Part shown: positions 5,274-64,000 of the stretch, piece after piece
Numbering within the stretch: position 1 is the stretch's first letter
Layout: the number at the start of each line of letters is the position of its first letter
Notes under the pieces: generated by a model
Seen by the model: the letters and a program-made list of their open reading frames with translations, nothing else
The model's database searches: none
What the model was told of the DNA's origin: nothing
Origin: Escherichia coli
GTDB lineage: Bacteria > Pseudomonadota > Gammaproteobacteria > Enterobacterales > Enterobacteriaceae
DNA length: 64,000 nucleotides
Direction: 5' to 3' (one strand)
Assembly (NCBI RefSeq): GCF_041248615.1
Contig: NZ_CP158426.1
Position numbers and translations under genes: made by a program

Positions 5274-5434
5274 AATTCAAGTTTTCATGCTTATCTGTAC
5301 GTCTCTATTTGTTTACGATTCAGTAAGTTAGCGTGAAAATCCTTCCCGGTGCGTATCTGGTTTTCTCTCTGTATCGGGATAATTTGGTGGTCAGATCTGG
5401 GGTCAGTTTGGTTCGATTCTGGAGTGACCCCCAA

Positions 5435-6696
5435 ATGTCTTTAAACGATTCTAAAATCCGCAAGTTAAAACCCTCTTCCCGTCTGGTAAAACTCTCCGAC
5501 TCTCACGGTCTGTATCTGCTCGTCAATCCGGGCGGTTCACGCATCTGGTATCTCAAATATCGTTTCAACGGAAAAGAATCCAGAGTCAGTCTTGGCGCAT
5601 ACCCGCTTGTCTCACTGGCAGAAGCCAGGCAACAGCGCGACGGTATCCGTAAGTTACTGGCGCAGAATATCAACCCGGCGCAGCAGCGCATGGCGGAGAA
5701 AGCGGCCTGCTCCCCTGAAAAGTGCTTTAAGGCAGTGGCGCTGGCCTGGCACAAAACCAACAAAAAATGGTCGGCTGATTATGCCGCCCGTATTCTCGCC
5801 AGTATGGAAAACCATATCTTCCCGGCGATTGGTCATCTGCCAGTTGCCACTCTTAAAACGCAGGATTTACTGCTTTGTTGCGGGTTATCGAGGATAAAGG
5901 CTTTCTGGAAGTCGCGTCCCGAACCCGGCAGCAACTCAGCAACATCATGTGCTATGCCGTTCAGCAGGGGCTTACCGAAAGCAATCCGGCGCAGCATCTG
6001 GATGGCGTTGTCGCCTCACCCGTAAAGAATCACTACCCCGCGTTACTGCTGGAGCGGTTGCCCGAACTGCTTGGCCGCATCGGTGACTATCAGCAGGGCC
6101 GGGAGTTAACACGGCTGGCGGTGGTGCTGACGTTGCACCTGTTTATCCGTTCCAGCGAACTGCGTTTCGCCCGCTGGAGCGAGATCGATTTCAGGCACAA
6201 AATCTGGACCATCCCCGCCACCCGCGAGGCAATCGACAAAGTACGGTTTTCGGGGCGTGGCGCAAAAATACGTACCCCGCATATCGTGCCGCTCTCCCGC
6301 CAGGCGATTGCCATTCTGAAACAGATACAGGAGCTTTCCGGCCATCTGGATCTGGTGTTTCCCGGTGATCATAACCCGTACAAGCCAATGAGTGAAAACA
6401 CCACCAACCGGGCGCTACGCCTGATGGGGTATGATACGAAAACTGAAATCTGCGGGCATGGACTCAGGGCGATGGCCTGTAGCGCCCTGGTGGAGTCGGA
6501 GCTGTGGTCACGCGATACGGTGGAGCGGCAAATGAGCCACCAGGAGCGTAACAGCGTGCGGGCAGCCTATGTGCATAAAGCGGAGCATCTGGAGGCCAGA
6601 AAGGCCATGATGCAGTGGTGGTCGGATTATCTGGATGTGTGCCGCGAGGGGTATGTTGCGCCGTACATTTATGCCCGGCAGCATAAGGCAGCCTGA
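5435..6696 (+). pseudogene. P4-family tyrosine integrase, frameshifted near 5872
   Basis: N-terminal part (MSLNDSKIRKLKP...ATLKTQDLL) is in frame 2 (ORF 5333..6025); C-terminal part (LRVIEDKG...HGLRAM...Y) is in frame 1 (ORF 5875..6696); restoring one C at about 5872 (ctgcCtttg) would give a contiguous DLLPLLRVIEDKG integrase of about 420 aa. Confidence 0.8.
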
Positions 6697-6835
6697 ATCA
6701 GAAATAACGGAAATCATTAAAAATGTAAAAGCAGATCCTGATTGACCGGGATCTGCTTATTGTATTGAGAAGTATTACCATTTTTCTGTTATTATCAATC
6801 GGAAAGTATCTAAAAATATTTGGCCCCAAATAATT

Positions 6836-7260
6836 TTGGTGAAAACCAATCAATAAACCATTTATCAATAGGTAAGTACCGGAAATTATTCCAGTAGAAT
6901 ATTTTCAGGCGATTGCCTATTAATAAATACATTATTGATAGATAAGTGCCTTCTGTGATTTGTCCGCAAATCACAGAAGATGAAAACCTATCAATACGGG
7001 ATATTTTCACGGAAATACCAATTAATACTCCAGAATATCTCCTGACCATATACTCTGAAACCTGTAAGAACTGCATCAGATATTGAGAGACCATATAGAT
7101 ATAAGTCTGAAATTATTTTGTTTCCAATGATTTCAGGCGAAAACCTATCAATGCATCTGTTTTCAATAGGCAGCCACCTTCCGTGATTAACATGTTAATC
7201 ACGGAAGGTGAAAAGCTATCAATAATCGATATTTTCACGGAATTACCACTTAATACATCC
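6836..7260. repeat. AT-rich iteron-like array: 4 copies of GAAAA(C/G)C(T/A)ATCAAT plus two long palindromes
   Basis: Motif at 6841, 6981, 7140, 7209; palindrome tctgtgatttgtccgcaaatcacaga (6952..6977) and perfect palindrome ccttccgtgattaacatgttaatcacggaagg (7177..7208); repeated gatattttcacggaa(a/t)tacca blocks. Confidence 0.55.
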
Positions 7261-8033
7261 CAAAAAATGCGCCATAAAATACCGGGCAATCTTTCCTGAT
7301 ACACATTATCACTGCACCAGCTATACAGAGACAAAATAATCTGCACCAGCCCCTGTAAATCGGTTATTTGTGCCAGTGTCCCGCCGCTCTACCTGTTCAG
7401 GGTTGTGCCAGTTTCTGGCCCTTTGGTTTTCGGCCCTTTCCGGTCAGGCGCTGTTACCCTTATTGCCCCTTAACCTTTATGACCCTTTCCCTTTCTGACG
7501 CAACCAGTTTATTTTGAAATGCTCCATGACAGTCTGCACCAGACTGTATTTTCACCACAGGATAACGATCACAAAGTGCAAAAAAATAACATGAAGCACC
7601 GAAGATTGTTAATCTATATGTAGCAGGTAATGATGTCAAAAACTGTCGCAGCATTTTTTATAAAATTATGAGACATTCTGTGGGCATATAATATATGTCA
7701 CAAGATGCAGGAAAACAAAGAGAGAGTTTTCAGATATAATCCCGCGTTAGAATTAATGTGATGCCCCGGTGAATTTACATTTTAAAATTTCCCTGTCCCG
7801 TAATATCGGTAAAAACGATTGAAACACCAACTATTAATCGGGAACGTCTCGAGTGATTACAGGGTAATCACTATAATATCCCGGCAAACTATATTGGTTA
7901 AGCAGGAGAATCTGATCAGTTGATATTTATTCGTCATGCTGTAACGATATTTTCACAATATAAACCCGTTCGCCCCCTGCGCCAGATCCGGTACAGAGGG
8001 TACGATAAATCGCTGTCGTTACGCAGTAACGTA

Positions 8034-8650
8034 CTATTTTGCGACATTCATGAATTCAGTCATTCCTCCCTCCAGCGGTAGCCGTACACCTGTTTCACCC
8101 AGCGACCGCGACCGTCGCCATGACCCAGATCCGTCGCCGTCAGCGCCAGTGACTCCTTTTCGCTGAATCCCTGCGCCAGTATCCAGGACTGTCGTATAAC
8201 GGGGACGCCCGCCTTTGGTGCCAAATACCACTTTTAGCCGGGTTTCACCGCGGGAAATGGCTTTCAGCCACGTTTTCAGCGACTGTGAACTCTGTACCGC
8301 CTCCTGCGAACGCAGCCCCATCAGCCGCGCAATCTCCAGGCTGCTGCCAGCCCTGCGTCCTGAGTACGGGCTTTCTCCATCACCTGCCTGCGTCCAGCCT
8401 GTCTCAGCACGGCCCGCAACGCTGCCATTTCGTTTTGCAACGTTCGTAAACCAATATCCAGCTCCAGCCGTTCCTCAATGTAGCATTCGATATGGCGAAC
8501 CTTGATCTGCTCCACCCGCTGGATCTGGATATTCAGCGCCCGTAAATGTTCACTGAACCGTTTTGTAATATGGATACGGTCATTCACCGTTTTGAAGCTG
8601 CCGCCCGCTTTCTTCGCCAGCGCCTTCATTTCACTGCTTAATTTACTCAT
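8034..8650 (-). pseudogene. Degenerate tyrosine-recombinase (integrase) remnant
   Basis: ORF 8321..8650 resembles an integrase N-terminal SAM-like domain; the adjacent out-of-frame ORF 8034..8321 has a GTKGGRPRYTTVLD segment resembling the TGKGGK.R..P recombinase box; no intact catalytic C-terminus. Confidence 0.4.
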
Positions 8651-9566
8651 GAATCCCTCTGCAACAAAAACAAACAGTCTCCGGCGTGTGCTTTTTGGCT
8701 GCGCCAGAACGATACCTTTACGCCGGAGTGGTAGTTTGTTGAGGTTTAGGGAGTTTCAGGCTGTACGCAGTACAGACTGCCTGCGAAGCAGGAGTGTCTC
8801 CGGGGCTTCTTGCCCCCCTCGGTATCGATCTTTTTCTCCTTTACTCTTAGCTGACAGCGGCCCCAAAGGGCATGTCAGACGGCGGAAATATGGCGCAGGC
8901 CAGAACTGGCGCGGCTTGTGGCGGTGAGTTGTGCGGCGTCACTTTGCTTTTTCGCTGGCGCGACCAAAGTGACGCCTCGTCTGGTGCAGGGGGTAAACGT
9001 TACGTTTCTGGTGCAGGGTGACGGTCACGCGGCAGCAAAGCCTGACGGCAATGCAGGCCGCAGCCCGTCAATGTAAGGCGCTGGTTGTCAGCAGAAGATA
9101 AAACCCGGCAAAGCCAGAGTGTCAGCCCGTAAAGCCGGGTATCTGGTGCAGTGATGGTGTATATGTACGTCAGTCTCAGATGCAGGTATTTTTGCATCCC
9201 CGGCGTTTTCAGAGATCAACGCCGGTAAAGGATGCCATGCTGGCGAAGCCAGGCGCTTCTTTCAGACGTGAAGCGACAAAGGGACTGCCCGGAGGCAGTT
9301 TGTTGCAGGCGGGAGACTGCGCCATTATTTCTGGTGCAGGAAGGAAAAACTGTTTCCGGGTTTAAAAGATTGTTTGCTTACCTGGTGACGGAAAAACTGC
9401 CGCGCTTCGCTTGTCTTCTCCCGGCGCGCTGCCAGCAAAAGCAGGCAGCGCGCCGGGAGAGTCTGGTTTTACTGTAACAATGCGCCTGACGGTTCAGCCA
9501 TCAGGATCGGCGTTTATGCATGAGTCTTCCGGTACGGTTGCCCCGATCATCGATGTATCTGGACGG

Positions 9567-9755
9567 TCAGATAATTTCCGGTGATGTTTCCAGCGCATCC
9601 GCAATCAGTTTTTCGCCGCGCGGCCTGGAGCGGGTCAGCGCATTTGCCAGCGTGGAAGACGCCAGCCCGGCCCTGCGGGAAACCTCAGCCAGCGATGTTC
9701 CCTTTTTTCTCAGGCCCGCGATAATATCGGCGGGGTGCCAGTCGGGTTGCATCAT
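9567..9755 (-). CDS. Ner/Nlp-like small HTH DNA-binding protein
   Basis: 62-aa ORF with WHPADIIAGLRKKGTSLAEVSRRAGLASSTLANAL, closely resembling the Ner/Nlp family. Confidence 0.6.
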   Translation of the reverse strand: MMQPDWHPADIIAGLRKKGTSLAEVSRRAGLASSTLANALTRSRPRGEKLIADALETSPEII

Positions 9756-10213
9756 GCTGGCCTCCCGTCGATAACCTGTATGCCGTCAGCAGTACATATC
9801 CAGCGTGGGGCGTTCAGATTGGCGGCAAAATACCAGACCAGTTCGCACAGCAGCCCGGTCAGCGTGGTTTCGGTTTCCGGCAGCAGCACGTGGCCGTTCA
9901 GTATCTGCGTCAGCGCCAGGCAGTAATCGCAGAGTGATCCTGCATCAGGCTCAAAACCGGGTGAAACATCGGGAAGATCATTCGTAATAAACCCGTCAAT
10001 CAGATGTGGTGGGATCGGCTCGTTCAGCGTGGGCCGCAACAGTGCAAGACAGGTATTAAGCCTGCCACAGAGCGCCGTTTTCAGCGCCGGATCGCAGCAC
10101 TCGATGAGCGTTGTGGCAACGCGATCGCAGTACTCCGCCAGATCGGTGAAATCGGTAGCGGCACTAAAGGGAACAGCAAGTAAATTGCATTCAGAGGTGA
10201 GAGTAGTCGCCAT
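9752..10213 (-). CDS. Hypothetical protein (153 aa), 4-bp overlap with downstream Ner-like gene
   Basis: ORF only; overlapping stop/start with the Ner-like gene suggests an operon; no recognised domain. Confidence 0.35.
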   Translation of the reverse strand: MATTLTSECNLLAVPFSAATDFTDLAEYCDRVATTLIECCDPALKTALCGRLNTCLALLRPTLNEPIPPHLIDGFITNDLPDVSPGFEPDAGSLCDYCLALTQILNGHVLLPETETTLTGLLCELVWYFAANLNAPRWICTADGIQVIDGRPA

Positions 10214-10734
10214 AAGGCCGTCTACAGTGAGTGATAAATATTCCAGCCACTGGAGAGGCTAATCTCACGGGTGGTGGAACCGGACGGGGTTAGCCTTACC
10301 AGCCTCACTGACACTGGCGCGTCTTTCGACGCCCCCGCCCGATCCCGCCATTGAGATGAGACCGTGCGCGACACACAAATATTGTATCGTCAGTGAGGAT
10401 CTTCAGGAGGCTAATCCCGACGCCTGATTTTGCAGGCGCGGCGCAACAATACAATGTTCGGTAATTTTCAGCAAGAGGTTTAGCGGAAGCAGACGCACAG
10501 GAAAATACAATCACGCGATAAATATTAAATACAATTATATTTATATAAAATATATATTGAGCAATATGCAGACACTTTCCAGTAAATATCCTGTCAGTTA
10601 ATTCGTCCCGTTGATATCAGTCAAAAAAATAAATGTAAAAAGAGCGTATTTCGTTTCATACAGTAACGTTATTTATCATTTTGTCCGGTGTCGCCAGCAT
10701 CAGGCCAGATGAACCATAAAAAAGGATATCAGCG

Positions 10735-13700
10735 ATGAGCGGAAAACCGGCAGCACGTCAGGGCGATGCCACAATGAAAGGTGGCCCGATAGTCCAGGGG
10801 TCGGCAGGCGTGAGGATTGGCGCGCCAACCGGCGTGGCCTGTTCAGTGTGCCCCGGCGGATTCACTTCCGGTAACCCGGTGAATCCGCTGCTCGGTGCAA
10901 AAGTACAGCCCGGCGAAACCGATTTCGCGCTGCCCGGCCCGTTACCGTTCGTGCTCTCCCGCACCTACAGCAGCTACCGGACGAAAACCCCTGCGCCCGT
11001 CGGTATCTTCGGTCCTGGCTGGAAAGCACCCTTTGATATCCGCTTACAGATACGCGATAACGAACTGATACTCAATGATAACGGTGGCAGAAGCATTCAT
11101 TTTGAGCACCTGTTTCCCGGTGAGGATGGCTTCAGCCGCAGCGAATTATTCTGGCTGGTGCGCGGCGGCGTGGCGAAACTGAATGAAAGTCACCGTCTTG
11201 CCCCACTCTGGCAGGCTCTGCCGGAAGAACTCCGCATGAGTCCGCATATTTATCTGGCGACGAACAGTCCGCAGGGGCCGTGGTGGATACTCGGCTGGAG
11301 TGAGCGGGTACCGGGTGTGGATGAGGTGCTGCCTGCGCCATTGCCGCCGTACCGGGTGCTGACCGGCCTGGTGGACCGCTTCGGGCGTACCCTGACCTTC
11401 CGGCGTGAGGCAGTTGGCGAATTTACCGGGGAAATCACCGGCGTGACCGATGGCGCAGGCCGTCAGTTCCGCCTGGTGCTGACCACGCAGGCGCAGCGGG
11501 CGGAAGAGGCCCAGCAGCAGGCGGTTGCAGCCGGAGCAAAACGACCAGATATCCCGGTTTCATTGCCGGACTATACAGAATATGGCCGGGATAACGGCAT
11601 CCGCCTGTCAGCGGTGTGGCTGACGCATGACCCGGAATACCCGGAGAATTTACCTGCCGCGCCACTGGTGCGCTACGACTGGACGCCACGCGGTGAACTG
11701 GCGGCGGTGTATGACCGCAGCGGTACGCAGATGCGCCACTTTACTTACGATGATAAATACCGGGGCCGGATGGTGGCGCACCGTTACGCAGGCAGGCCGG
11801 AGATGCGTTACCGCTACGACGACATCGGGCGCGTGACGGAACAACGTAATCCGGCGGGTTTAAGCTACACCTATCAGTATGAGAAAAACCGCATCATCAT
11901 CACCGACAGCCTGAACCGGTGCGAGGTGCTGCATACAGAAGGCGAAGCCGGGCTGAAACGGGTGGTGAAAAAAGAGCACGCTGACGACAGCGTCACACAG
12001 AGTCAGTTCGATTCCATTGGCCGCCTTCAGTCACAGACGGATGCGGCAGGCCGGACGACAGAATACAGTCCGAATGTGGTGACGGGTCTCGTCACACGCA
12101 TCACCACGCCGGACGGCAGGAAATCGGAATTTTACTATAACAACCAGAACCAGTTAACCTCAGCATCCGGGCCTGACGGACTGGAAATGCGCAGGAAATA
12201 TGATGAGTACGGGCGTCTGACGCAGGAAACCGCTCGCAACGGCGATATCACCCGCTACAGTTATGATAATCCGCACAGTGAATTACCCTCTGCAACTGAA
12301 GATGCGACGGGTAGCCGCAAGCAGATGACGTGGAGCCGTTACGGGCAGTTACTGACTTTCACCGACTGCTCAGGCTACCAGACCCGTTATGAATACGACC
12401 GCTTTGGTCAGATGACGGCGGTCCACCGTGAGGAAGGTGTCAGTCTTTACCGCAGCTATGACAGCCGTGGTCAGTTAATCTCGGTGAAAGATACGCAGGG
12501 CCGTGAAACGCAGTATGAGTACAACGGTGCAGGCGACCTGACCGCCATTATCACGCCAGACGACAACAGAAGCGAGACACAGTACGATGCGTGGGGAAAG
12601 GCCGTCAGTACCACGCAGGGCGGGCTGACGCGCAGCATGGAATACGACGTTGCCGGACGTGTCATCAGCCTGACCAACGAGAACGGCTGTCACAGCGACT
12701 TCAGTTACGATGTGCTCGACCGCCTGATACAGCAGAGCGGCTTTGACGGGCGGACGCAACGTTACCGTTACGACCTGACCGGGAAACTCACGCAGAACGA
12801 GGATGAGGGGCTTGTCACCCTCTGGCACTACGACGAATCGGACCGTATCACACACCGCACGGTGAACGGCGAACCGGCAGAGCAGTGGCGGTATAACGCC
12901 CACGGCTGGCTGAAAGAAATCAGCCACCTGAGCGAAGGTCACCGGGTGGCGGTGCATTACGGCTATAACCGTAAGGGACGTCTCACCGGCGAGCGCCAGA
13001 CGGTGCATAACCCGGAGACGGGGGAACTGCTCTGGCTGCATGAGACAAAACACGCCTACAACGAACAGGGTCTGGCAAACCGCGTCACGCCGGACTGCCT
13101 GCCTGCTGTGGAGTGGCTGACCTACGGCAGCGGTTACCTGGCGGGGATGAAGCTGGGCGACACGCCGCTGCTGGAGTACGCGCGCGACCGCCTGCACAGA
13201 GAAACGGTGCGCAGCTTTGGCAGCATGGCAGGCAGTAATGCCGCATACGAACTGACCAGCACATACACCCCCGCAGGCCAGTTACAGAGCCAGCACCTGA
13301 ACAGCCTGGTGTATGACCGTGACTATGGGTGGAATGACAACGGCGACCTGGTGCGCATCAGCGGCCCGCGACAGACGCGGGAATACGGCTACAGCGCCAC
13401 GGGCAGGCTGGCGAGTGTGCGCACCCTCGCACCGGACCTGGACATCCGCATCCCGTATGCCACGGACCCGGCGGGCAACCGGCTGCCGGACCCGGAGCTG
13501 CACCCGGACAGTACACTCACAGTGTGGCCGGATAACCGCATCGCGGAGGATGCGCACTATGTCTACCGCCACGATGAATACGGCAGGCTGACGGAGAAGA
13601 CGGACCGCATCCCGGCGGGTGTGATACGGACGGACGACGAGCGGACCCACCACTACCACTACGACAGCCAGCACCGCCTGGTGTTCTACACGCGGATACA

Positions 13701-14916
13701 GCATGGAGAGCCACTGGTCGAGAGCCGCTACCTCTACGACCCGCTGGGACGGCGAATGGCGAAAAGGGTATGGCGGCGGGAGCGTGACCTGACGGGGTGG
13801 ATGTCGCTGTCGCGTAAACCGGAGGAGACATGGTACGGGTGGGACGGCGACAGGCTGACGACGGTGCAGACTGACACCACGCGTATCCAGACGGTGTACC
13901 AGCCGGGAAGCTTCACGCCGCTCATCAGAATCGAAACAGACGTGACCGAACTGGAGAAAGCGCAGCGGCGAAGCCTGGCGGAGAAGTTACAGCAGGAAGG
14001 GAGTAAAGATGGTCACGGCGTGGTGTTCCCGCCTGAACTGGTGCGGCTGCTGGACAGGCTGGAGGGGGAAATCCGGGCAGACCGTGTGAGTGACGAAAGC
14101 CGGGCGTGGCTTGCGCAGTGCGGGCTGACGGTGGAGCGGCTGGCGGCACAGATCGAGCCAGTTTATTTGCCTGAGCGAAAAATACATCTTTATCACTGCG
14201 ACCACCGGGGACTGCCGCTGGCGCTTATCAGTACTGAAGGTGCAACGGAATGGCGTGGGGAGTATGACGAGTGGGGGAATCAGCTTAATGAGGAGAACCC
14301 GCATCATCTGTTCCAGCCATACCGCCTGCCGGGGCAGCAGTACGATGATGAATCGGGGCTGTGCTATAATCGTTATCGTTACTACGAGCCGTTACAAGGG
14401 AGGTATATTACACAGGACCCGATTGGGTTAAATGGGGGGTGGAATTTATATAAATATCCGCTGAATCCAATAAATTATGCAGATCCTCTTGGCTTAGCCG
14501 TAGATATAAACCACTTCCCAGTCAACGAAGACATACGAAATTATGCAGAGAAAGTTTGGAATAATCCTAATATCATTACAATTGGAACACATGGTGATCC
14601 TCAATCAGTATATGATGAAAATTATAATAAGATAGATGTCAAGACATTAGCTAATGAGGTTCGAAATCATCCTAAATTTAAACCTGGAATGTCAGTAAGA
14701 CTGTTATCCTGTAATACAGGAAAAGGAAATAACTCTTTTGCACAGCAATTGGCAGATGAACTAGGTGTGAGAGTCTATGCTCCTGACCAATATGACTGGT
14801 ACTATTCAAATGGTAAGGTAGAGCCTTGGGGAGGATTCTATGATGCAAACAATCAATTGCAAATGGACACGAATCAGCCTGGACATGAGTTTACATTCAA
14901 GCGAAGGAAACCATAG
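10735..14916 (+). CDS. rhs: Rhs family polymorphic toxin (RHS/YD-repeat core plus variable C-terminal toxin tip)
   Basis: 1393-aa ORF starting [11 protein letters not shown] as in E. coli Rhs proteins; many YD repeats; core ends at ...[13 protein letters not shown]...YADPLGL (about 14497), followed by an AT-rich 139-aa tip. Confidence 0.9.
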
Positions 14917-14972
14917 GTATGAGGTATTTTCTCTTTATATTTATAACAATCCCCCTTATCTCTGGAGGTCAT

Positions 14973-15521
14973 ATGAGTAATGATAGCGAAAAGATAATAT
15001 CAACATATTCGCTCAATTTTTTATCACCAGATGATGTGAGGAAAGAAGAACTTAAGGCATCACAAGGTGATAGTGATGCTGCATTTAAATTGTACAAATA
15101 TTACCTTTTTTGCGAGCCAAAATCATACAGAAAACAGCACGAATGGTTAATAATATCGGCAAATAATGGAAATGCTATAGCTCAATATAACTTATCAAGA
15201 GAACTTGAGTCAGAAGGAAAAGTAGATGAATCAATACAATGGCTGAAAAAATCAGCGGAACATGGTAATAATTATGCACAATATCAGATGTCAAAATATT
15301 TATTAAAAATAGGTGATATTAGAGGATCGGAATATTATCTAAACTTATCTGCGGATAACGGATGTGTATTTGCAATAAAAGATATTATCAAAAATATGAT
15401 GGATAGTGGAAGGTACGATGACGCCCTCATTTGGGTTGAAAAATTGAAAAAATTGTATCCTGACACAAATACCGAACTTTACATACAAAAAATAACGCAG
15501 AAAAAAAAGCAATCCAAATAA
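14973..15521 (+). CDS. Putative Rhs immunity protein with Sel1-like repeats
   Basis: Immediately downstream of the rhs tip, AT-rich like the tip; GGAGG Shine-Dalgarno before ATG 14973; repeats GNAIAQYNL / GNNYAQYQM resemble Sel1/TPR-like motifs. Confidence 0.55.
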   Translation: MSNDSEKIISTYSLNFLSPDDVRKEELKASQGDSDAAFKLYKYYLFCEPKSYRKQHEWLIISANNGNAIAQYNLSRELESEGKVDESIQWLKKSAEHGNNYAQYQMSKYLLKIGDIRGSEYYLNLSADNGCVFAIKDIIKNMMDSGRYDDALIWVEKLKKLYPDTNTELYIQKITQKKKQSK

Positions 15522-18891: not shown

Positions 18892-20208
18892 TTAAGCGCG
18901 TTGATTGTCTTTCATCAACAAAGCGGTCATTGCGGAAATCAGGCATCCAGCCAGCAAATAAATAGCGACGCTATGCCAGTTCCCGGCAAAGTAAGTGATG
19001 AGTGCAGCGGCAATAAAAGGTGTAAATCCACCGCCAACCACACTGGCAACCTGATAACCGACTCCAGCGCCACTATAGCGATAACTGGCACCAAACATTT
19101 CGGTAAACATCGGTTGTTGTACACACACCACCATATCATGCGCAATGTTTGCCAGCATGATGGAGAAGAAAACTATCCAGAAAATAGATTGTGCTTCAAG
19201 CGCCATAAAGAAAGGAAATGCGCTCAACGTTCCGAATAACGCACCTGTGATATAAACCCTGCGGCGACCAAAACGATCGGCAAGCCAGGCAAAACAGGGA
19301 ATTGTCAGGCAGCTTAATCCACCGACCAGCAAACCAATATTAAGGAAAAGTTCGCGCGGTAACCCCATATTCTGGGTTGAATAATTAAGTGCAAAGGCAG
19401 TAACAATGTACATCGTCAGCAACTCGCACAGTCGTAGTGCAATAATCTTCAGGAAAGCACCGGGATGTCGTAACAGAGCTTCGATAACCGGGATGCGTTT
19501 TTTCGCGGCCGCTTGATTATGTTGCTGTTGTTCAAATTCCGCGGACTCCTCCATGCCATTGCGCACCCACAATGCTCCCAGTACCAGTACGATGCTAAAC
19601 AGGAAAGGAATGCGCCAGCCCCAGCTTAAAAACTGTTCGTCAGTCGTCATCATACTGATCAATGAAACCAGTCCGGTTGAAAGCAGTAAACCTACTCCGT
19701 AGCCAACTTGTACACCGCTACTGTAAAAGGCTTTTTTATTTTTCGGCGCACTTTCAACGGAAAGCAACGCTGCGCCTCCCCATTCGCCGCCGACGGCAAA
19801 TCCCTGAATGGCACGCAGTGTCACCAGCAAAATAGGTGCCCACCACCCAATGGTCGAGAATGAAGGAAGAATACCAATCAAGGCTGTCGCGATGCCCATC
19901 ATCCAGACGGTCAGCATTAACATGCGCTTACGTCCCAGTCGGTCGCCAAAGTGACCGAAAATGACACCGCCTAGCGGTCGGAAAAGGAAGCCGACACCAA
20001 AGGTGGCAAATGCGGCGAGCGTTCCCATCGCCGGGCTTACTTGCGGGAAAAACTCGCGATTAAACACCAGTGCGGCGGTAATGCCATAGAGTAAAAAATC
20101 ATACCAGTCGACGACGGCACCAGCGAAACTGCCTAACGCAGCTCGTCGGGCGCGACTTAACGAAAGCGTCCCTTCATCGGGACGAGTGGAGATGAGCGTG
20201 GAGTCCAT
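18892..20208 (-). CDS. shiA: Shikimate transporter (MFS)
   Basis: 438-aa MFS transporter with GxLaDRxGRR-type motif (FGHFGDRLGRKRM); synteny amn-shiA-yeeL. Confidence 0.9.
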   Translation of the reverse strand: MDSTLISTRPDEGTLSLSRARRAALGSFAGAVVDWYDFLLYGITAALVFNREFFPQVSPAMGTLAAFATFGVGFLFRPLGGVIFGHFGDRLGRKRMLMLTVWMMGIATALIGILPSFSTIGWWAPILLVTLRAIQGFAVGGEWGGAALLSVESAPKNKKAFYSSGVQVGYGVGLLLSTGLVSLISMMTTDEQFLSWGWRIPFLFSIVLVLGALWVRNGMEESAEFEQQQHNQAAAKKRIPVIEALLRHPGAFLKIIALRLCELLTMYIVTAFALNYSTQNMGLPRELFLNIGLLVGGLSCLTIPCFAWLADRFGRRRVYITGALFGTLSAFPFFMALEAQSIFWIVFFSIMLANIAHDMVVCVQQPMFTEMFGASYRYSGAGVGYQVASVVGGGFTPFIAAALITYFAGNWHSVAIYLLAGCLISAMTALLMKDNQRA

Positions 20209-20522
20209 AATGATCCTGTTTGTACTGTCTTTTTATAATTAGTATGGAAAAGGTAACTCACATTGCCGTCGATCTATAAACGAACCTTATGAGACTACCT
20301 CGACAGAGCGCATCTGCAAATGATTTTATGGCTGATTAGCGGCAACATGAAAAATTCGATGGAAGATGAAAGCACGGGCGTTGCTGGTGTTGTTTAAGGA
20401 TTAAGCAGAGCACCCACAGGTTCGAGATATGAAACATAAAAGTCCGCATATGTACAAAATAGCACCCTGATGAGTCTGATAGACTGCATTGCATTATAAC
20501 CAGTAGGGAGGCGAGGTTAGGT

Positions 20523-21575
20523 ATGTTTTTAGCATCATTGTTGAGACGTATTGCATTTAGTTACTACGATTATAAAGCTAATAATTTCAATATTGGAAAA
20601 ACAGACTTTGTTGTCATCCATATTCCCGATCAAATTGGCGATGCTATGGCCATCTTTCCAGTTATTCGGGCGATTGAAATGCATAAAATAAAGCATCTTT
20701 TAATTGTTACTTCGACTATTAATTTAGAAGTCTTTAATGCGCTCAAACTTGAACAGACTAAATTAACATTAGTTACAATGACTATGCAGGATCACGCAAC
20801 ATTAAAAGAAATAAAAAATTTAGCGAAGAACATAACACTGCAATACGGTACGCCGGATCTTTGTATAGAGGCGATGCGTAAAAAGAACCTGAAAACGATG
20901 ATATTTATCAGTCAGTTGAAAGCAAAAACGAATTTTCAGGTTGTTGGTTTAACCATGAAGTGCTATTCCCCTTTGTGTAAGGACGCGTCCCGGATGGATC
21001 AGAGTCTCCGGGCTCCCGTACCCATGACATGGGCATTTATGATGCGTGAGGCGGGTTTTCCAGCAGTCAGGCCAATATATGAATTGCCACTAAGTGAGGA
21101 TGTACTCGATGAGGTGCGCGAGGAAATGCGATCGTTAGGAGCTTACATTGCGCTCAATTTAGAAGGTAGTGCACAGGAACGTACATTTTCATTATCGATA
21201 GCAGAAAATCTAATAGCAAAAATTCAAAGTGAAACAGATATGCCAATAGTGATCGTTCATGGACCAAAAGGGGAAGATAAAGCCAGGGTATTAGTGGATT
21301 GTTATAATAATGTCTTCCGTTTATCCTTATCACCCTCGATTAAACGTTCGGCAGCAATCATAAAAGATGCTTATATCGCAATAACTCCTGACACCTCAAT
21401 ATTACATATGGCAAGTGCCTATAATACCCCCGTTGTTGCAATTTATGCTGATTACAAAACGCGATGGCCCGCAATGGCCGATGTTTCGGAGTCAGTCGTC
21501 GTTGGGCAAAAAATTGACAATATAAGTCTGGATGAATTCGCAAAGGCATTAAAAAGTGTTTTGGCGAGAATATGA
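20523..21575 (+). CDS. yeeL: Glycosyltransferase family 9 (heptosyltransferase-like), YeeL, apparently intact
   Basis: 350-aa uninterrupted ORF between shiA and yeeJ; AT-rich; family call from position and C-terminal GT9-like region. Confidence 0.65.
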   Translation: MFLASLLRRIAFSYYDYKANNFNIGKTDFVVIHIPDQIGDAMAIFPVIRAIEMHKIKHLLIVTSTINLEVFNALKLEQTKLTLVTMTMQDHATLKEIKNLAKNITLQYGTPDLCIEAMRKKNLKTMIFISQLKAKTNFQVVGLTMKCYSPLCKDASRMDQSLRAPVPMTWAFMMREAGFPAVRPIYELPLSEDVLDEVREEMRSLGAYIALNLEGSAQERTFSLSIAENLIAKIQSETDMPIVIVHGPKGEDKARVLVDCYNNVFRLSLSPSIKRSAAIIKDAYIAITPDTSILHMASAYNTPVVAIYADYKTRWPAMADVSESVVVGQKIDNISLDEFAKALKSVLARI

Positions 21576-21836
21576 GGCAGTATTTATGCATATTAATGCC
21601 GATCTGTTATGAACGGTGGTGTCATCAATACTCTGTGGCTGGTCAATCATTACAGAAAGCCAGTCTTTGGAGCAAAGCTGTACTCACCGGATACAACCAT
21701 AGTCACACCGAACGCGAATCTGGCGGTATCGCATTTTTATTTATTCATTTTCTGTGAGAGAAGGGCAAGTTCTGTAGAGGGAATGTAAAAAAGAGTGCCC
21801 CGAATGGAGCACTCTTTAAGGAATTATAGCGGAAAA

Positions 21837-29802
<7,966 letters not shown>

Positions 29803-30114
29803 GCTTACCTTCCCTGAACGAGCTAACATAAATGCGCCCTTTCTAGCACAGCGAAAAAAAGTAAATCCTGATAGCAATATGATTGAAAATTAATAACTTT
29901 TCGTTAAGCAGTTTTGGGTGTGAGTTGCAAGAGGGGAGACTACTGAATTACTCAAGTTTTATAATCGAGGGGAAAATGGTGATGGCGTCCATAGCAAAAC
30001 GCCCTCAACCATAAAGGTCGAGGGCGCTTAAGATGTCAAAAACCCGCTATCCGTTAAAAAGCAATGCTCAACTAAGGTCAGTGACATTGCGCTAAAAAGC
30101 GAATTTTTAGAATT

Positions 30115-30130
30115 TGGCTCCTCTGACTGG
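30115..30130 (-). repeat. tRNA-Asn 3'-end remnant (16 bp): att boundary of island 2 at the asnT site
   Basis: tggctcctctgactgg is the reverse complement of the tRNA-Asn 3' end; identity stops after 16 nt; adjacent island sequence is homologous to the island-1 end. Confidence 0.75.
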
Positions 30131-63559: not shown

Positions 63560-64000
63560 TTAACGGTTTAAATCGGAGGTTGGTGCAGTTAACTGCTGCT
63601 GGTTCCACTGTTTGAGACGCTCATCCTCCAGCACTTTCCCGCGTTTTTCTGCCGCCTTCACACTCATTTCCCATTGATCAGTGAGCGTGTTCAGCATCAC
63701 TGATTTCAACTGAATACTGTTGGCAAGGTCCAGCGACTCCTTTGAGTCTTTAGAGAGTGCAATCCGGTTTGAAAGATTATTGATCTCACCCAATGTTTGG
63801 CTGACCTGATCCTGGATCTCGTCAGTCTGCTCAAACTGAATTGCCTTATTGATAACCTGTTGTTTGCAGATATCGGCATAGCTTCCGGACTGCGCCGCGT
63901 TGCACGTATCGAAAACCCGGTACTTTGCGTATAGCGCATCGAACTGCCCGGCGATGCCACCAGAAAGTAGCAGGTCGTTGAGTGTCTGGCCCGGCTTACG
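63560..64000 (-). CDS. virB5: VirB5-like T4SS minor pilin, partial (5' end beyond window)
   Basis: Minus-strand frame is open from window end to stop at 63560 (…GIAGQFDALYAKYRVFDTCNAAQSGSYADICKQQVINKAIQFEQ…); helical, Cys pair; position. Confidence 0.55.
   Translation of the reverse strand, partial: RKPGQTLNDLLLSGGIAGQFDALYAKYRVFDTCNAAQSGSYADICKQQVINKAIQFEQTDEIQDQVSQTLGEINNLSNRIALSKDSKESLDLANSIQLKSVMLNTLTDQWEMSVKAAEKRGKVLEDERLKQWNQQQLTAPTSDLNR

Follow-up and report, generated by a model that had tools for sequence, protein, structure and literature searches.

The gene yeeL is found within a stretch of 64,000 nt of Escherichia coli DNA (contig NZ_CP158426.1, assembly GCF_041248615.1), here called the window, between shiA on one side and the 3' end of yeeJ on the other. 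The features of the locus are listed in Table 1. According to both the ORF list and the sequence, the reading frame starts with ATG and contains no internal stop, in line with the original prediction of an uninterrupted gene for a 350-aa protein between shiA and yeeJ. Two Shine-Dalgarno-like boxes precede it, namely GGGAGG (20506-20511) and GAGG (20513-20516), the latter 6 nt before the ATG, and both are unchanged in the K-12, O157 and B2 alleles. The frame is evidently not a chance ORF, because 350 codons stay open at a GC content of 39% and the product aligns end to end with orthologues of four genera. Between shiA and yeeL, a scan for promoters returned 5 sites compared with 5.5 expected in shuffled sequences; it shows no enrichment and is uninformative on expression. 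A 61-codon ORF on the plus strand (21572..21757), whose start overlaps the stop codon of yeeL as ATGA, was treated as spurious and is probably not a gene. Its frame is uninterrupted in both the window and O157 and carries an internal stop in K-12, and its C-terminus diverges in the alleles of an APEC B2 strain and of SCU-105.

Table 1 Features of the yeeL locus. Positions refer to the window
Feature	Position	Strand	Basis
shiA	18892..20208	-	
Shine-Dalgarno-like sequence GGGAGGCGAGG, 5' of the yeeL ATG	20506..20516	+	Read from sequence
yeeL, intact family 9 (GT-B) glycosyltransferase-like ORF, 350 codons	20523..21575 (stop included)	+	Six-frame ORF list
Codons G39-D40, N-terminal Gly-Asp motif, aligned with WaaC Asp13	20637..20642	+	Invariant column
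Codon R220, aligned with WaaC Lys192	21180..21182	+	hhalign of family profile and alignment
Codon 235, CAA (Gln) in the window, TAA in K-12/BL21(DE3)	21225..21227	+	MG1655 comparison and 41-mer census
Codons D290-T-S-I-L-H295, putative nucleotide-sugar motif, aligned with WaaC D261-T-G-L-S-H	21390..21407	+	PDB profile search, hhalign
GC-rich, terminator-like hairpin with T-run on the yeeJ strand, between convergent yeeL and yeeJ	21790..21817	-	Pattern scan only
yeeJ, inverse autotransporter adhesin, split into three ORFs, apparent pseudogene	21837..29877	-	ORF list, tblastn, RefSeq

The closest relative is E. coli KE55. Its yeeL is 100% identical, but an ISEc31 element separates shiA from yeeL there, directly 5' of yeeL and at a point that corresponds to about position 20400 of the window, so that yeeL expression could be altered in this strain. 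Similarity to KE55 stops at about position 30130, inside the position of the tRNA-Asn gene asnT, and ARAGORN detects no tRNA there. From this point to position 64000 the window is occupied by a large island with an IS3 remnant, a ComEC/Rec2-like gene, UbiD/UbiX genes, ArdC, an ABC-three-component (ABC-3C) system with a 1045-aa AAA ATPase, GT32 and GH16 genes, a second hchA copy, MobC and a VirB-type type IV secretion system. This composition suggests an integrative conjugative element at asnT, and the first 7.9 kb of the island are covered to at least 80% in only 4 of 5,426 genomes. Another island (about 5400-15500) adjoins a tRNA-Asn gene and contains, judged by the KE55 annotation, degraded integrase genes, a TPR protein gene and an RHS element core gene of high GC content (56-61%). 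By the respective annotations, the RHS gene is intact in E. coli NRZ14408 (NZ_LT599825.1) and frameshifted in KE55.

The window gene was compared with its counterpart in the K-12 reference genome. In NC_000913.3 (MG1655), the positions 2052276-2053328 are annotated as "pseudogene yeeL b4497" (formerly yeeL_1/yeeL_2), and PGAP gives yeeL the label "internal stop" both in BL21(DE3) and in a derivative of MG1655. The two genes are orthologues because they share their position (shiA, yeeL, yeeJ) as well as a full-length, collinear alignment of high identity. Both measure 1053 nt and align without gaps at 95.6% nucleotide identity, with 46 nucleotide differences and 22 differing amino-acid positions, 21 of them besides codon 235. 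In this pairwise comparison, the sole disabling change is a C-to-T transition that converts CAA into TAA at codon 235 of K-12. The K-12 lesion is neither a frameshift nor an insertion: the genes are of equal length, and that of K-12 carries a single nonsense change. The K-12/BL21 protein is further altered at two family-invariant positions (A117G and L143I). The alignment thus bears out the original prediction that K-12 yeeL is a disrupted pseudogene: the K-12 gene equals the window gene in length but is not intact, and the nonsense codon occurs on the K-12 side only.

To determine how common each allele is, 5,426 complete E. coli genomes were searched, 5,284 of which contain the 1.6-kb yeeL region. 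The alleles were distinguished by 41-mer probes centred on the polymorphic base, for which the 28-nt exact word of megablast forces a match of the central base; a separate probe was used for the O157-type CAA alleles, in which one flanking base differs. CAA was found with the common flank in 3,628 genomes and with the O157-type flank in 481 genomes, hence in at least 4,109 of the 5,426 genomes (at least 76%). TAA was found in 770 genomes (about 14%), always on the chromosome and in a single copy. Its carriers comprise K-12 and B/BL21 derivatives as well as isolates from humans, cattle, chickens, a goose, a cat and a frog; in the one bovine feedlot isolate that was inspected, yeeL is annotated with "internal stop". 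Because wild isolates carry TAA, the stop codon is a natural lineage polymorphism and not a laboratory artefact. The remaining genomes with the locus, around 400, have other yeeL variants or partial genes, and in strain 0-4 the gene is truncated by IS elements.

An intact yeeL was confirmed in O157:H7 SS17, APEC E19035 (B2) and SCU-105. A single cluster in the protein database unites 10,923 sequences of 350 aa. Across the 7.9 kb compared, the window is 100% identical to NRZ14408, and RefSeq already annotates the yeeL of that strain as an intact family 9 glycosyltransferase (WP_000477867.1). Intact yeeL is therefore the ordinary, majority and already annotated allele, and any implication that it is noteworthy falls away. 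Both the pseudogene status in K-12 (reference annotation) and the intact protein (a RefSeq entry common to many genomes) are already known. As a separate observation, the nucleotide sequence of the window allele is only 94.7-96.3% identical to that of most other E. coli, only 102 of 5,285 records reach at least 99%, and in a comparison of six alleles nine amino-acid changes proved private to the window allele.

Full-length YeeL homologues are also present outside the common E. coli alleles. Their identity to the window protein is 73% for a divergent Escherichia-type locus (P0043), 67% for E. albertii, 66% for Pseudocitrobacter, 60-63% for Erwinia and 52-56% for Rosenbergiella. The alignment of 17 YeeL sequences contains 100 invariant positions. 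None of the 16 homologues aligned (E. coli, E. albertii, Pseudocitrobacter, Erwinia and Rosenbergiella) has a stop at codon 235. Because every one of them is open there, the sense codon is the ancestral state and TAA the derived one. The suggestion that the window allele is of the ancestral form agrees with this distribution and with CAA being commoner than TAA. Among the 13 homologues that are not of the E. coli type, 112 positions are invariant, of which the window protein keeps 111; the exception, L51I, is conservative. Between E. coli yeeL alleles, dN/dS ranges from 0.15 to 0.49 (Nei-Gojobori) and is below 1 in all pairs, which indicates purifying selection, though not a strong one, given that the values exceed the expectation for a strongly constrained enzyme. 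Repeated losses, through the nonsense allele in about 14% of genomes and through the IS truncation in strain 0-4, show that the gene is dispensable. Modest purifying selection together with repeated losses describes a gene that is dispensable and nevertheless maintained.

The same data can be read less favourably, with yeeL as an open but decaying or silent gene, a cryptic low-GC remnant that is nearing loss and that is "intact" without being "functional". The GC content of 39% compared with about 50% in the flanking core genes fits such a remnant and may also mean that yeeL is H-NS-silenced. Likewise, dN/dS values of up to 0.49 between some alleles, inactivation on independent occasions (TAA in 770 genomes, IS elements in strain 0-4), promoter-like sites upstream that do not exceed the background, and the ISEc31 insertion in KE55 are compatible with decay. 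Against this reading, no fewer than 76% of complete genomes keep the frame open, as do the orthologues of four other genera, which are 52-67% identical. The window allele also retains every catalytic-motif residue and 111 of 112 family-invariant positions, and dN/dS is below 1 in every pair. We thus regard a silent remnant as unlikely and an ordinary, maintained allele as the better description of the window gene.

The product was assigned to an enzyme class by profile searches and structure prediction. The Pfam family 9 glycosyltransferase profile (PF01075) matches YeeL with 29.1 bits, above its gathering cut-off of 22, which supports the family-9-like product that had been proposed from the sequence; the match spans residues 233-321 only. 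Six members of the YeeL family likewise score above the PF01075 threshold. Against the heptosyltransferase equivalogs (TIGR02193, TIGR02195, TIGR02201 and NF007742), the best score is 38.1 bits (HepI) compared with a cut-off of 185.3, and each of the others is below 19 bits. As these values are far under the NCBIfam equivalog cut-offs, YeeL was rejected as an orthologue of WaaC, WaaF or WaaQ. Sequence searches of the PDB returned nothing significant, with best E-values of 1.5 for the single sequence (WaaF) and 0.13 for the profile (WaaC); the weak alignments nonetheless fall on the nucleotide-sugar motif of WaaC/WaaF. Sequence and profile searches as well as hhalign failed to match the N-terminal acceptor domain significantly to either WaaC or WaaF.

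An AlphaFold2 model of YeeL was built from the 17-sequence alignment (mean pLDDT 85, pTM 0.84, residues 142-162 being the exception). The top ranks of a Foldseek search with this model are taken by 3TOV, WaaF (1PSW) and WaaC (2GT1, 2H1F, 2H1H and 6DFE), with E-values from 2.6e-13 to 9e-11 against the family 9 structures. The model thus predicts a GT-B fold that is nearest to solved family 9 enzymes (WaaC and WaaF); 3TOV is a family 9 protein as well, though an uncharacterised one. Six columns are invariant across the YeeL family and E. coli WaaC, WaaF and WaaU, namely G39, D40, D290, H295, A299 and P303. WaaC depends on its catalytic Asp13 and on Asp261 for activity, and its Lys192 makes contact with the phosphates of ADP. 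The Arg at position 220 of YeeL is invariant in the 17 homologues and is a conservative replacement at the position of Lys192.

YeeL also differs from the characterised enzymes. It shares 12-15% identity with WaaC (HepI) and WaaF (HepII), has around 28 extra N-terminal residues and is encoded outside the waa cluster. A further similar enzyme is WaaU, the putative heptosyltransferase IV of the K-12 core, which resembles YeeL in size and in the N-terminal extension before Gly-Asp (IIHDNNKLGD versus VIHIPDQIGD). Of the three waa enzymes it gives the best hhalign match (E 1.9e-5, 71 C-terminal columns), but its identity to YeeL is 15% and the significant alignment is confined to the C-terminal motif region. 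WaaC and WaaF have no sequence-similar counterpart of the YeeL loop 142-162 (window 20946-21008). The model is of low confidence (pLDDT <50) in this loop only, although the loop is among the most conserved stretches of the Enterobacterales orthologues (GLTMKCYSPxCxxASRMDQxxRAP), with C147, C152, D159, Q160 and R163 as the invariant residues of the stretch. It may be an acceptor-binding or a redox/metal loop. A metal-binding cysteine cluster of C114, C147 and C152 was rejected, as C152 is not conserved in more distant relatives and a fourth ligand is not evident.

The three yeeJ ORFs of the window encode 1702, 128 and 818 aa and correspond in tblastn to three frames of the intact 2660-aa YeeJ of KE55. 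Relative to KE55, one nucleotide is missing at 24389/24390 and 16 nt are missing at 24785/24786, and the 143-aa stretch between these deletions is only 88% identical to KE55. RefSeq labels the yeeJ of NRZ14408 as "frameshifted". In the window, the adhesin gene is thus broken and yeeL intact, the reverse of the state in K-12.

The proximity of both genes raises the question of whether YeeL could be a protein glycosyltransferase that heptosylates the adhesin YeeJ, as Aah does with AIDA-I and TibC with TibA. Like YeeL, the enzymes of this BAHT family combine a GT-B, family-9-like fold with a gene beside an adhesin gene, and in E. coli yeeL and yeeJ are adjoining and convergent. The synteny of the orthologues argues otherwise. 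No inverse autotransporter gene adjoins them in Erwinia, E. albertii, Pseudocitrobacter or Rosenbergiella, and both Pseudocitrobacter and the 73% identical Escherichia-type locus show the order amn-shiA-yeeL-mtfA without yeeJ, which suggests that yeeJ was inserted later at this locus. The pseudogene states of the two genes are uncoupled as well: yeeL is intact and yeeJ degraded in the window and in APEC E19035, while yeeJ is intact and yeeL dead in K-12, BL21 and USMARC-51688. A conserved linkage of yeeL to an autotransporter substrate was accordingly found neither among the orthologues of four genera nor among these E. coli strains. Finally, YeeL has no detectable homology to TibC/Aah, and its predicted fold is nearer to the LPS enzymes than to TibC. 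On synteny, pseudogene states and fold ranking, YeeL as the YeeJ-modifying enzyme was rejected and is considered very improbable.

The preferred reading, to which we assign a probability of about 0.8, is that the window carries an ordinary intact allele of the gene that is the nonsense pseudogene b4497 in K-12 and B, and that its product is a family 9 transferase with a putative acceptor among the envelope glycans. Indications of the acceptor come from more distant relatives. In E. coli and in close orthologues, yeeL is solitary and lies outside waa, O-antigen and other glycan clusters, so that its context gives no clue to the acceptor. Three full-length relatives with 33-35% identity, in contrast, are encoded in clusters with Wzy_C (ligase/polymerase family), Bac_transf, WecG-type, GT2 and GT4 genes, and one of these clusters has another family 9 gene as well as an ABC1-type kinase-like gene. 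The glycan clusters of these relatives point to LPS or lipid-linked envelope glycans.

From its fold and conserved residues, YeeL would be an active, cytoplasmic, inverting GT-B glycosyltransferase of CAZy family 9. The C-terminal domain would hold the nucleotide sugar via D290, T291 and H295 together with R220, and the analogy to WaaC and WaaF makes ADP-heptose the likeliest donor. Asp40 would act as the general base, and the sugar would be transferred with inversion to an acceptor that is bound by the divergent N-terminal domain with its family-specific conserved loop. Based on the gene neighbourhoods of the distant relatives, and hence with less weight, the acceptor may be an envelope glycolipid or oligosaccharide, such as the LPS core or a related lipid-linked glycan. 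YeeL would then be a stand-alone, dispensable decorating enzyme outside the essential core pathway. That it is an active family 9 enzyme which decorates the LPS core or another envelope glycan with heptose or a different sugar in most wild E. coli is a possibility that we put forward tentatively. If true, the modification would be invisible to K-12-based genetics and LPS chemistry, as K-12 and B/BL21 share the nonsense allele.

No literature on the function of YeeL was found; matches to the name are chiefly unrelated (e.g. author names) or stem from strain tables and lists of insertion sites. The K-12 gene serves metabolic and strain engineering as a "neutral" site for chromosomal integration (PMC11566304), and under the older split name yeeL_1 it is tabulated among insertion sites (PMC4390576). 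For most chassis derived from wild or probiotic E. coli, the integration site would not be a pseudogene. More generally, both standard laboratory lineages of E. coli lack a conserved family 9 glycosyltransferase, and its product, if any, would be missing from the knowledge of the envelope that is derived from K-12.
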